Origin: Clostridium sp. CAG:628
GTDB taxonomy: Bacteria; Bacillota_I; Bacilli_A; RF39; UBA660
NCBI GenBank assembly: GCA_000438415.1
Contig: FR902233.1
Span: forward strand, 2,366-66,365
Length of the DNA: 64,000 nt
Reading direction: 5' to 3'
Shown: in pieces, positions 61,479 to 63,704 of the stretch
Layout: the number at the start of each line of letters is the position of its first letter
Position numbering within the stretch: position 1 is the stretch's first letter
Notes under the pieces: generated by a model
What the model saw: only the letters and a program-made list of their open reading frames with translations
Databases searched by the model: none
Told to the model about the DNA's origin: nothing
Position numbers and translations under genes: made by a program

Positions 61479-63704
61479 TTAGTGTACATTCTCTATTTGT
61501 ATCTTTGTATAAAAATTCTTTCCTTTATCAATATCTTGATTAACATCACTATCTTTAAACATTAACTTAAACATATAAGTATGAGTTTCACCTGGTTTAA
61601 TAATAATACTTTTTAACATGACACCATCTTTATAAGGTGCTCTTGCTGTATTAATATCTATCAAAGTTTTATTATCTTTAATAAGTCCATAATATAAATT
61701 ATTAGTTGTAGAAAATTCATTCTTAACACTTGTAAAATTAATATTATAAGTTAAAGTAACTGCACTAGTATTAGTTATCTCAAATACCTTACTAGCACTC
61801 CATCCAGGATAAATATTAACATTCTTTAAATCTGTAATATCTTTAAAAGTTAAAATATACTCATCATTCTTTCCAATATCAACAGGTCCACCACAATTCT
61901 TGTCGCATATTCCATCTCCATTAGTATCACAATTCTTGTCACACTTACCGTCTCCATCAATATCACAGTTTAAATCACATTTACCGTCTCCATTAGAGTC
62001 ACAATTCTTATCACATACTCCATCGTTATTAGTATCACAGTTCTTGTCACACTTTCCATCATTATCTGTATCACAGTTTATTTTACATGTGTCATTCTCT
62101 TTGCCATCGCAATTCTTATCACATATACCATCCCCATCAGTGTCACAATTTTTGTCACATACTCCATCATTATTAGTATCACAATTTAGTTCACACTTTC
62201 CATCGTTATCAGCATCACAATTTCTCTTACATTTATCACTGCCTGCATCACAATTATAATCGCATTTTCCATCACCATTAGCATCACAATTTTTATCACA
62301 TTTGCCATCATTATCAGTATCACAATTTCTGTCACACTTACCGTCTCCATTAGTGTCACAATTTATTTTACATACATCATTTTCTTTACCATCACAATTC
62401 TTATCACATATGCCATCATTATCAGTGTCACAGTTCTTATCACACTTTCCATCGTTATCAGTATCACAATTTAAATCGCACTTCCCATCTCCATTTAAAT
62501 CGCAATTCTTAAGACAAACATCATTATTTTCAGTACAATTGTAATCACATTTTCCATCTCCATTAACATCACAATTCTTGTCACACTTTCCGTCTCCATC
62601 TGTGTCACAATTTTTGTCACATTTTCCATCTCCATTAAAGTCACAATTTAACTTGCATGAATCGTTCTCATTACCATCACACTTCTTATCACATATACCA
62701 TCATTATTAGTGTCACAGTTCTTATCACACTTTCCATTATTATTAGTATCACAATTTAAATCACACTTACCGTCTCCATTATAGTCACAGTTTTTGTCAC
62801 ACTTACCATCCCCATCAGTATCACAATTAACTAAACATAAATCTTTTCCAGTATTACCACATTTAACATTACAAATACCATCGTTATCAGTGTCACAATT
62901 CTTATCACACTTACCATTTCCTTTAGTATCACAATTTAACTCGCAATACCCATCTCCATCAACATCACAGTTTCTGTCACATACTCCATCTTTATTATCA
63001 TCGCAGTTTCTGTCACATTTACCGTCTCCATTAGTATCACAATTTATTTTACATACATCATTTTCTTTTCCAGTACAATTTTTATCACATATTCCATCTT
63101 TATCTTCATCTAAATTTGTATCTGGTTTTCCATCTTTATCAGTATCACAATTTAAATCGCACTTCCCATCTCCATTAACATCACAGTTAACATCACACTT
63201 ACCATCTTTATCAGTATCACAGTTTAAATCACATATTCCGTCATCGTCAAAATCTATATTTGTATCAGGATATCCATCGTTATTTGTATCACAATTCTTA
63301 ATACACTTTCCATCTTCATCTTTAACATTTATTAAATTCTTATCAGGTTTCCCATCTCCATCAGTATCTATATTAAAGTAAGGCTTAAGTACTTTCTTAT
63401 ATCCAACATTTAAATCAGGTTTTCCATTCCCACTAGTGTCACAGTTAACATCACATTTTCCATCATTATCTAAGTCTACATTAAGGTCAGCTATCCCATC
63501 CCAATCAGTATCTATATTTAATCTATGTTTATAAATCTTAAAATAATTATACACAGAAAAACTAGCACTACCTATTGCAATTAATAATAGTATCAAAAGT
63601 AATATAATTATAATAACTCTCTTCTTCTTTTTATCTTCAGGTTCTACAAAATAAAGACCTTCTTCTTCTATGATTTTCTTTTCATCATCATTCATTAAAA
63701 TCAC
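61479..63704 (-). CDS. giant membrane-anchored protein with ~45 tandem 12-aa Cys/Asp repeats (NCDTDxDGKCDK; TSP3-like) and C-terminal TasA-like domain
   Basis: N-terminal TM helix. Residues ~60-595 are almost pure xNCDxNxDGxCDx repeats. The C-terminal IYPGWSASKVFEITN...KGKNFYTKIQI domain is homologous to the small TasA-like proteins. The start is GTG at 63704 or ATG at 63695. Confidence 0.5.
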   Translation of the reverse strand: MILMNDDEKKIIEEEGLYFVEPEDKKKKRVIIIILLLILLLIAIGSASFSVYNYFKIYKHRLNIDTDWDGIADLNVDLDNDGKCDVNCDTSGNGKPDLNVGYKKVLKPYFNIDTDGDGKPDKNLINVKDEDGKCIKNCDTNNDGYPDTNIDFDDDGICDLNCDTDKDGKCDVNCDVNGDGKCDLNCDTDKDGKPDTNLDEDKDGICDKNCTGKENDVCKINCDTNGDGKCDRNCDDNKDGVCDRNCDVDGDGYCELNCDTKGNGKCDKNCDTDNDGICNVKCGNTGKDLCLVNCDTDGDGKCDKNCDYNGDGKCDLNCDTNNNGKCDKNCDTNNDGICDKKCDGNENDSCKLNCDFNGDGKCDKNCDTDGDGKCDKNCDVNGDGKCDYNCTENNDVCLKNCDLNGDGKCDLNCDTDNDGKCDKNCDTDNDGICDKNCDGKENDVCKINCDTNGDGKCDRNCDTDNDGKCDKNCDANGDGKCDYNCDAGSDKCKRNCDADNDGKCELNCDTNNDGVCDKNCDTDGDGICDKNCDGKENDTCKINCDTDNDGKCDKNCDTNNDGVCDKNCDSNGDGKCDLNCDIDGDGKCDKNCDTNGDGICDKNCGGPVDIGKNDEYILTFKDITDLKNVNIYPGWSASKVFEITNTSAVTLTYNINFTSVKNEFSTTNNLYYGLIKDNKTLIDINTARAPYKDGVMLKSIIIKPGETHTYMFKLMFKDSDVNQDIDKGKNFYTKIQIENVH
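61920..63530 (-). repeat. ~45 tandem 36-bp coding repeats
   Basis: The strict 36-bp periodicity generates the mirror +strand ORFs (SQFLSHLPSP...) seen in the ORF track. Confidence 0.7.

Follow-up and report, generated by a model that had tools for sequence, protein, structure and literature searches.

Arrays of Dx[DN]xDG motifs in tandem are a known kind of protein feature, as are acidic stalks. The type-3 repeats of thrombospondin (TSP), which form the 'calcium wire' of TSP-1 and COMP, do without a hydrophobic core and rely on cysteines to tie the chain together; their motifs, of two types, are longer than 12 residues, and their disulfides span a repeat of about 20-35 residues. The Dx[DN]xDG calcium motif itself recurs in a dozen or more unrelated folds, that of thrombospondin 1UX6 among them (PMC3123361). 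Surface fibres of the TasA type are represented by the tapA-sipW-tasA locus of Bacillus subtilis (PMC9674648, PMC10151520) and the sipW-bsaA locus of Clostridium perfringens (PMC7395162), and accessory and anchor proteins have been described in TasA-type loci (PMC9674648, PMC10151520, PMC7395162, bioRxiv 10.64898/2026.01.04.697558). Here we describe a locus from the apparently uncultured gut bacterium Clostridium sp. CAG:628, contained in a stretch of 64,000 nucleotides (the window; GenBank assembly GCA_000438415.1, contig FR902233.1, positions 2,366 to 66,365), in which a gene designated A encodes a long array of short Cys- and Asp-rich repeats. Its paralogue, gene B, and genes for four small proteins lie directly downstream.

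Our preferred reading, held with somewhat more confidence than doubt, is that A is a calcium-rigidified, Cys-clasped stalk presenting a TasA-like domain that would anchor or nucleate fibres made of the small subunits. The computed results on which this reading is built are the anatomy of the repeat, the covariation of the Cys pairs, the domain homology, the linkage to SipW in relatives and the polymorphism among strains.

Residues 59-610 of A were parsed into a single register comprising 42 units of 12 residues, two of 11 and one of 26, in agreement with an earlier note on this DNA that had counted about 45 units of 12 residues. The unit consensus is x-N-C-D-x-[DN]-x-D-G-x-C-D, with N2 conserved in 43/45 units (96%), C3 in 39/45 (87%), D4 in 40/45 (89%), D8, G9 and C11 each in 36/45 (80%) and D12 in 33/45 (73%). 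Two Cys were found in 35 of the 45 units and the full D-x-[DN]-x-[DN]-G-x-x-[DEN] motif in 34, and a stricter pattern,.NCD.[DNGKS].[DN]G.C[DENK], fits 28. The array is of very low complexity (D 25%, plus N, K and G) and strongly acidic, with 136 D and 9 E against 65 K and 4 R across 552 residues. The same note had read the units as calcium-binding loops, which was borne out at the level of the motif, as they carry Dx[DN]xDG-type sequences and their similarity to family models, although below threshold, was only to such loops. Its description of the units as near-perfect was not, since mean pairwise identity is only 64% in DNA and 55% in protein, with a single pair of units equal in amino-acid sequence and no two the same in DNA.

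All 78 Cys of A fall within 39 C-x3-C pairs, as do all 12 real Cys of B within six. Each pair straddles a unit boundary, combining position 11 of one unit with position 3 of the next. Among 151 relatives, these two positions were tightly coupled (both Cys in 603 instances, a single Cys in 129 and 4, neither in 2014; phi 0.88), whereas C3 and C11 of the same unit were uncorrelated (phi -0.02). It is literally true that the loops are bracketed by two Cys, as had been claimed, but the actual pairing crosses unit boundaries. When the two positions were not occupied by Cys, the prevailing states were P-I (837), A-I (228), P-V (173) and P-L (136). This covariation points to residues that are probably in contact, joined either through a small hydrophobic pair or through a disulfide, and the array of A would thus be the version in which almost every clasp has turned Cys-Cys. 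Cys makes up 10.6% of A, compared to 0.94% in the other open reading frames (ORFs) of the window, and the hydrophobic content is 12.7% in the array of A versus 31.5% in that of B. The presence of lone C-x3-C pairs in Cys-poor proteins argues against multi-Cys metal sites.

The proteins A and B have the same order of parts, namely a cytoplasmic tail of 25 residues with acidic and basic stretches, one hydrophobic helix, the array and a C-terminal domain of ~130 residues. For B, about 30 degenerate and largely Cys-free units had been proposed, and ~29 were counted. A protein search returned 1185 relatives, for which the source names gave only 'hypothetical protein' or an attached domain (MucBP, Ig-like). 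Among the best 120 of these 1185, almost every protein consists of a transmembrane (TM) helix, the array and the C-terminal domain, with 5-37 strict loops and 0-51 Cys, and the genomic loci that were fetched (given L numbers below) extend the family to 62 loops and to 125 Cys (L006) and 108 Cys (L005). Clostridia and Erysipelotrichales also have large surface proteins that contain the array in Cys-free form, placed directly ahead of an xTGD-type sorting signal or a TM anchor at the C-terminus; in Beduini massiliensis, for example, this form reads NIDTNGDGKPDI and is present in about 15-17 copies. Because the array adjoins the anchor whichever end is anchored, it is placed where one would expect a stalk that spans the wall or provides stand-off. 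Both the TM-array-domain layout and the anchor-adjacent Cys-free arrays in other Firmicute proteins fit the extended surface spacer that had been suggested for this gene. The N-termini of A-like proteins showed weak similarity to bitopic membrane anchors, and TIGR04088, the SipW-dependent signal family, was not among the families that they matched.

The tails of A (63618-63695) and B (61330-61405), both on the minus strand, share an acidic (K)IIEEEGLYF(E)E segment followed by a cluster of Lys and Arg. In L001 and L005, both A and B retain the IIEEEGLYF motif, and the tail also occurs in the orthologue of L103, a sister lineage. This conserved tail suggests a cytoplasmic partner or a sorting function beyond that of a plain signal anchor.

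An AlphaFold2 (AF2) model of residues 420-738, built from an alignment of 30 sequences, had a mean predicted local distance difference test (pLDDT) score of 75, with 66-80 in the repeats and ~88 in the C-terminal beta-sandwich. Within the array, no helices were predicted, and isolated beta-bridges recurred with a spacing of 12 residues at positions 1 and 3 of the unit. Such a pattern in the model is compatible with a stacking of successive units without proving it.

The C-terminal domain of A and B is homologous to the neighbouring small proteins. Comparison of the profile of the A/B domain with that of the small proteins by hhalign gave a probability of 99.5% (E=1e-22), and local jackhmmer searches started from either the C-terminal domain or the small proteins had 60 of 61 matches in common. 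Each of the four small proteins consists of an N-terminal segment of the ..LLVAIIGATFAYFTT type and a domain with the PGW motif found in A, and all four have a ..VGATFAYFT motif in common. Within the family of small proteins, TIGR04088 was matched by 8 of 26 members (best E=1.9e-4) and the BsaA family TIGR04090 by 3 of 26; additionally, the profile of the small proteins matched AbpX, an archaeal member of the TasA superfamily, at E=0.018 in the PDB. The profile of the C-terminal domain yielded only noise against PDB sequences, and Pfam and NCBIfam classified none of the window's own proteins of this system. A signal peptidase I of the SipW/archaeal type (TIGR02228; about 90 bits, cutoff 51.85) is encoded directly downstream of the A-like gene in 12 of the related loci that were fetched, and several others have it close to the small genes. 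Altogether, these matches suggest that the small proteins resemble the SipW-dependent subunits of TasA, BsaA and AbpX fibres.

We infer from these results calcium binding, disulfides, a rod shape and an anchor or nucleator role for A, which may act together as follows. A and its Cys-poor paralogue B would be bitopic membrane proteins with the N-terminus inside, and their extracellular part would be a long array of minimal 12-residue calcium-binding loops. Successive loops would be held together by a contact between position 11 of the first and position 3 of the second; in A this clasp is C-x3-C, probably a disulfide, and in B and most relatives Pro or Ala would face Ile, Val or Leu. Binding of approximately one Ca2+ per unit (perhaps 38-41 in all) would roughly offset the charge of -76 and could let the chain stack into a thin rigid rod. 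This rod would be a stalk set at the membrane anchor that holds the C-terminal TasA-superfamily jelly roll off the cell, where the domain, as an anchor or in a role like that of TapA, most likely nucleates or captures the fibres into which the four small SipW-type subunits assemble. The length of the stalk would shift slowly, by rare in-frame deletions or duplications of whole units, and not by rapid slippage.

Several observations weigh against this proposal. An AF2 model of the repeats alone reached a pLDDT of only 47.6 and was left out of the fold search; the search with the first model matched only the jelly-roll domain and not the array, and PDB searches gave no solved structure matching the repeat part. 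The likeness of the C-terminal domain to TasA was modest in the fold search, where generic jelly rolls scored equally. None of the window's own four small proteins matched TIGR04088 individually, and no SipW homologue was found in the window or, in conspecific contigs, in the ~10 kb that flank the small genes on each side. Some A-like proteins have a GATFAY or GATYSYY motif after the TM helix, and these may consequently be cleaved and released instead of anchored. Furthermore, the ORFs of the window contain no thioredoxin-like [WFY]CxxC motif, which in a presumably anaerobic, apparently uncultured gut host makes the origin of 39 disulfides puzzling.

A bolder version, which we offer only tentatively and think less likely to hold than to fail, is that the array is a previously undescribed fold. 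It would be the smallest solenoid with bound calcium, in which each rung takes 12 residues and one Ca2+; the Asn residues at position 2 would form a ladder, and the clasp between rungs would have switched in evolution from Pro/Ile packing to a C-x3-C disulfide and back. Such a fold would set the length of the membrane stalk, and make it sensitive to Ca2+ and redox state, in a TapA-like anchor that holds TasA-type donor-strand fibres on uncultured 'Tenericutes'-like gut Bacilli; the surface-fibre system would then come equipped with a molecular ruler.

Table 1. Features of the locus, in coordinates of the window; deletions are placed on the window sequence.
Feature	Position	Strand	Description
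Gene A, coding sequence	61479..63695	minus	738 residues plus stop; from the ORF list, the ATG at 63695 and gene calls on conspecific contigs
A, N-terminus	63549..63695	minus	tail, residues 1-26 (IIEEEGLYF, KKKKR); TM segment/signal anchor, residues 27-49, ending ..IGSASFSVY
A, array	61866..63521	minus	residues 59-610; 45 units, 34 full Dx[DN]x[DN]GxxD loops, 39 C-x3-C pairs, net charge -76
A, higher-order 285-bp repeat	61973..62789	minus	Tandem Repeats Finder: 2.9 copies, 78% matches; 8 units = 48 + 47 residues
A, C-terminal jelly-roll domain	61482..61865	minus	residues 611-738, PGW motif; homologous to the four small downstream proteins
Terminator-like hairpin	61468..61494	minus	overlaps the stop codon of gene A, T-run after it; 2 such sites against 0.7 expected in the region
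Deletion in L109	61997..62104	minus	108 bp, about residues 531-566, 3 units; A = 702 residues
Deletion in L092	62148..62432	minus	285 bp, residues 422-516, 8 units = one higher-order repeat; A = 643 residues; junction homology 5 bp
Deletion in L089	62580..62723	minus	144 bp, residues 325-372, 4 units; A = 690 residues; junction homology 11 bp
Three phantom ORFs	61900-62259, 62302-62544, 62794-63381	plus	periodic SQFLSHxPS translations; by-product of the codon pattern, not genes
Gene B, coding sequence	59741..61405	minus	554 residues from the likely start MTEEEK; paralogue of A with the same architecture
B, array	about 60191-61228	minus	~29 mostly Cys-free units, 6 C-x3-C pairs
Small protein 1	59042..59620	minus	192 residues; N-terminal ..LLVAIIGATFAYFTT signal-type segment and jelly-roll domain
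Small protein 2	58302..58892	minus	196 residues; paralogue of small protein 1
Small protein 3	57634..58203	minus	189 residues; divergent paralogue
Small protein 4	57008..57625	minus	205 residues; paralogue

The minus-strand ORF that contains gene A spans 61479-63704. An AGGGTG precedes the ATG at 63695, and gene calls on 19 conspecific contigs gave a protein of 738 residues; the true start is probably this ATG and not the GTG at 63704 chosen by the earlier note.

In the DNA of the array, Tandem Repeats Finder identified a period of 36 bp across 61892-63239, with 37.6 copies and 65% matches. Self-identity at an offset of 36 nt is 0.61, against a mean of 0.26 at out-of-frame offsets, and the periodicity is therefore far above chance. 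The check proposed in the earlier note thus confirmed the period but found low unit identity, and its description of the DNA as strictly periodic does not hold given this match rate and the shifts of register at three points. Adjacent units are no more alike than others (64% mean identity in both comparisons), and the longest exact direct repeats, of 41, 32 and 29 bp, lie at offsets of 681, 681 and 285 bp, with at most 22 bp of exact repeat between adjacent units. The expected phantom ORFs on the opposite strand were indeed present, with periodic translations (Table 1). The units are arranged in blocks of four, each ending in a degenerate unit without Gly (GKENDxCK, TENNDVCL or AGSDKCK type), and the degenerate unit at about every fourth position accounts for the 285-bp higher-order repeat.

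The degenerate units of the A array read KNCxGKENDxCK, YNCTENNDVCL and YNCDAGSDKCK in full, and their positions are kept in the divergent L102 orthologue. Synonymous codons in the array lean towards the rarer ones of the genome (AAG 52% vs 26%, GAC 23% vs 13%, GGA 58% vs 41%). In relatives, units of equal amino-acid sequence still differ at 24-52% of third positions. This codon divergence could reflect selection against recombinogenic identity or simply age.

Variation in repeat number was assessed in 22 conspecific sequences of gene A, from 21 distinct samples and the window. The protein has 738 residues and all 78 Cys in 19 of these sequences, and the remaining three carry in-frame deletions (L089, L092 and L109; Table 1). 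The nearest full-length allele differs from L089 at 4 nt and from L092 at none, and these few differences, together with the short junction homologies of 5-11 bp, indicate recent in-frame deletions of the microhomology type and not slippage between identical units. For L109, the nearest full-length allele differs at 43 positions and the junction is less well defined. Collapse during assembly was considered for L089 and L092 and rejected, as the junction homology is far below assembler k-mers and the flanks are identical or nearly so. Two of the three deletions take out exactly one or two 4-unit blocks. The 19 full-length alleles diverge by up to 4.65% in nucleotides with no change of length or of the 78 Cys; their polymorphic codons comprise 101 with synonymous changes only and 40 with an amino-acid change, and gene A is evidently under purifying selection.

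At larger distances, a more divergent lineage (L102) retains 739 residues, 78 Cys and degenerate units at the same positions, and the sister lineage L103 has a protein of 493 residues with 6 Cys at the position of gene A. Across related lineages, A-like genes encode 405-1122 residues, against a constant 554-565 for B (554-557 in conspecific and sister contigs). The array of A is thus plastic in length between lineages and stable on the scale of strains, with no mechanism for on/off switching, since a 36-bp unit keeps any change of copy number in frame. The earlier note had predicted changes in repeat number by slipped-strand mispairing or recombination and, from these, length or phase variation. 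Length variation exists, as in-frame deletions in 3 of 22 sequences, but is rare; slippage between near-identical units is contradicted by the unit identity of 64% and the short exact repeats of adjacent units, and phase variation by the in-frame nature of all variants and by the 19 sequences of equal length and Cys content. Repeat number is nevertheless not invariant, even though the units are too divergent for classical slippage. The case shows that a striking protein repeat need not mean a hypermutable DNA repeat.

Among the rival explanations, the main one, to which we assign a minor share of the probability, is that A and B are fibre subunits cleaved by SipW and secreted. The TM segment would then be a long signal peptide of the TasA type, the array would be a long spacer between an N-terminal donor strand and a C-terminal acceptor domain, and the mature protein would become part of the fibre or cross-link it. 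This would explain the small-subunit motif G-A-T-F/Y-A/S-Y that follows the hydrophobic segment in A-like proteins of L009, L010, L006 and L019, as well as the position of the SipW-type gene, which in 12 loci comes next after the A-like gene; in L002/L003, no other family member was detected in the fetched locus, which leaves the A-like protein as the only evident SipW substrate. The accessory protein TapA of B. subtilis is itself secreted via SipW. However, the cytoplasmic extensions of A and B, of 25-90 residues with IIEEEGLYFEE, would be unusual for a cleaved signal peptide, and the N-termini of A-like proteins resemble bitopic anchors and lack a TIGR04088 match. In the window, the corresponding motif of A, GSASFSVY, is degenerate, and no SipW gene occurs there or nearby in the species. 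The long conserved tail and the missing TIGR04088 match favour an anchor over a secreted subunit. Another rival is a contingency or antigenic-variation locus, in which slippage or recombination would rapidly alter the length of an exposed antigen. Although 3 of the 22 conspecific sequences have in-frame deletions, two of them very recent (0 and 4 nt), and A-like proteins range over 405-1122 residues against a constant B, we judge this improbable. The units are 64% identical with none identical in DNA, and junctions of 5-11 bp indicate rare illegitimate events; 19 of 22 sequences remain at 738 residues despite divergence of up to 4.65%, with invariant Cys and mostly synonymous polymorphism, L102 still has 739 residues, 78 Cys and the same punctuation, and a 36-bp unit cannot switch frame.

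Two further explanations concern the chemistry of the array. That the Cys bind metal or carry out redox chemistry, as in a metallothionein-like or thiol-buffering surface protein, seems quite improbable: single C-x3-C pairs stand between Cys-free units in B and in Cys-poor relatives, where a four-Cys site is consequently not required, the pair is interchangeable with Pro/Ala plus Ile/Val/Leu as expected of a packing contact and not of a set of ligands, and the A protein of sister lineage L103 has only 6 Cys. These points outweigh, in our view, the high Cys content of A (10.6%), the regular Cx3C/Cx7C spacing that could form Cys4 sites, and the probably anaerobic host with no [WFY]CxxC oxidoreductase motif evident in the window. 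Very improbable is a disordered polyanion serving as calcium reservoir, mineral nucleator or entropic brush. Its very low-complexity composition, the low-confidence model of the repeats alone and the lack of a structural homologue in our searches speak for such a chain; position-specific conservation (N2 96%, G9 80%, the Cys pair), strict covariation, the retention of degenerate-unit positions in L102, purifying selection and the periodic beta-bridges at pLDDT 66-80 in the first AF2 model speak against it.

Immediately upstream of gene A, genes for a 665-residue GGDEF protein (diguanylate cyclase) and for a protein of the BrkB/YihY family were present in all conspecific and related loci (L083-L090, 2973-5853; L001, 6034-8915). 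As a regulatory setting, the GGDEF gene of the conspecific loci counts in favour of the preferred reading. This region extends beyond the end of the window at 64000, which holds only the 3' end of the BrkB-family gene (63770-64000). In sister lineage L103, a RelB/ParE toxin-antitoxin pair is inserted between the BrkB-family gene and gene A (1443-2035). Downstream, conspecific and related loci encode LtaS, TilS and FtsH. Between LtaS and TilS lies a gene (54309-54950, minus strand) whose product of 213 residues has a TM segment at its N-terminus and matched no family; L001 has a counterpart of 211 residues at the same position.

Small proteins 1, 2 and 4 end in (V/I)YYNxxNPxGTxxxP, a tail that is missing from small protein 3 and is also found in orthologues of L001 and L005. 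This tail may be a cross-linking or docking segment; BsaA has been reported to form intermolecular isopeptide bonds (PMC11580942). In L108, a conspecific contig, the gene for small protein 2 is split into ORFs of 78 and 103 residues (4913-5502, corresponding to 58302-58892 of the window) with the rest of the locus intact, apparently by a frameshift or as a pseudogene.

The word-indexed protein search missed the conspecific proteins of 738 residues, although many public contigs have gene calls for them, presumably as repeat words swamp the candidate list, and the exact sequences of A, B and the L089 variant were not in the clustered protein collection. In a scan of genome contigs, the source species was not among the matches, the best of which were 54-55% identical. 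Highly repetitive proteins may be under-represented in sequence collections or hard to retrieve from them.

The species is abundant in public gut metagenomes, with the small neighbour proteins found in 549-1480 index blocks, and several of the samples are labelled human, for example those of Hadza and Nepal cohorts. Its nearest named relative is a metagenome-assembled genome called 'Tenericutes/Mycoplasmatota bacterium', and the G+C content of the window is 26.3%. The repeat family is large and wholly unannotated, and it resides here in a species that is very common in gut metagenomes. If the stalk reading is correct, A would provide a minimal modular calcium-binding rod whose length is tunable in steps of 12 residues, of relevance to protein design and to the positioning of surface structures in Gram-positive bacteria and those with a reduced wall. 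In gut Bacilli that are not yet culturable, it would also tie biofilm fibres of the TasA superfamily to an anchor or accessory protein of a new kind. In addition, the covariation between Cys pairs and Pro/Ile would yield a structural prediction that is directly testable.

The closest known repeats were compared at the level of family models and sequences. Whole-protein Pfam searches of A and B gave no family at E<=0.1. Searches with array segments of 48-83 residues at E<=10 gave sub-threshold matches to loop parts of EF-hand_1 (model positions 9-20, 16.9 bits against a gathering cutoff of 25.4), Dockerin_1 (12.7 bits, cutoff 22.9), FG-GAP and Notch LNR, and no TSP model was among the matches listed. 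NCBIfam models of MSCRAMM Ser-Asp proteins (ClfA/ClfB/SdrC/SdrD) matched at 82-99 bits against cutoffs of 999-2500, in the D-rich region only; this identity was rejected, the scores being far under the cutoff and compositional. PDB sequence searches with the whole protein, a 95-residue array segment and the C-terminal domain returned nothing significant (EF loops of EhCaBP at E=0.7) and no TSP chain among the matches. A literature search found no described calcium-loop/Cx3C stalk or 12-residue calcium solenoid, and the papers examined on TasA-type systems made no mention of a calcium-loop stalk in a TasA-family accessory protein. Likewise, no family model or paper was found for a 12-residue unit with an interchangeable C-x3-C or Pro-Ile clasp, for a 4-unit punctuation by degenerate units, or for such an array coupled to a TasA-superfamily domain and locus.

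With TSP type-3 repeats (TSP_3, TSP3_bac), the array shares contiguous, tandem, extracellular Asp-rich DxDxDGxxD motifs with interspersed Cys. The resemblance noted earlier is correct in that a tandem motif of this kind is present in 34 of 45 units, but neither the family models nor the Cys framework matched, and the array appears not to belong to the TSP type-3 family, with only the convergent Dx[DN]xDG motif in common. In A, the Cys are paired as C-x3-C from one loop to the next and are replaceable by Pro/Ile, and the array would be a stalk beside the membrane anchor, whereas TSP type-3 repeats wrap a C-terminal lectin-like domain. EF-hands and dockerins have the same 12-residue loop (D1, D/N3, D/N5, G6 and an acidic position 9); the array of A differs in having no flanking helices, Cys or Ile instead of a bidentate Glu at position 12, and 45 directly consecutive loops. 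Like MSCRAMM Ser-Asp stalks and RTX extenders, the array is a long acidic repeat of variable copy number between an anchor and a functional domain, although its unit is a calcium-loop motif with a Cys clasp and not an SD dipeptide or an Ig-like beta-sandwich. Calcium rigidification of RTX adhesin extenders is documented (PMC7493085). The antifreeze protein of Tenebrio molitor also has a 12-residue period and two Cys per unit, and the model of A has beta-bridges every 12 residues; Cys spacing and Asp/Asn chemistry differ, and the fold search gave no match to it. We take this resemblance to a disulfide-braced beta-helix of the antifreeze type to be a lead only.

The TasA-type systems appear to resemble the locus at the level of both domains and gene order. 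In contrast to the TasA-type loci, the window has no SipW gene, and fibre formation is here a prediction. TapA-SipW-TasA of B. subtilis, BsaA of C. perfringens and the archaeal AbpX/ABP/cannula proteins are donor-strand fibre systems, and the A/B domain and the small proteins are putative jelly rolls with a modest similarity to the TasA superfamily. The order of small subunits, accessory protein and SipW-type peptidase recurs in the relatives of this locus and recalls that of the tapA-sipW-tasA and sipW-bsaA loci.

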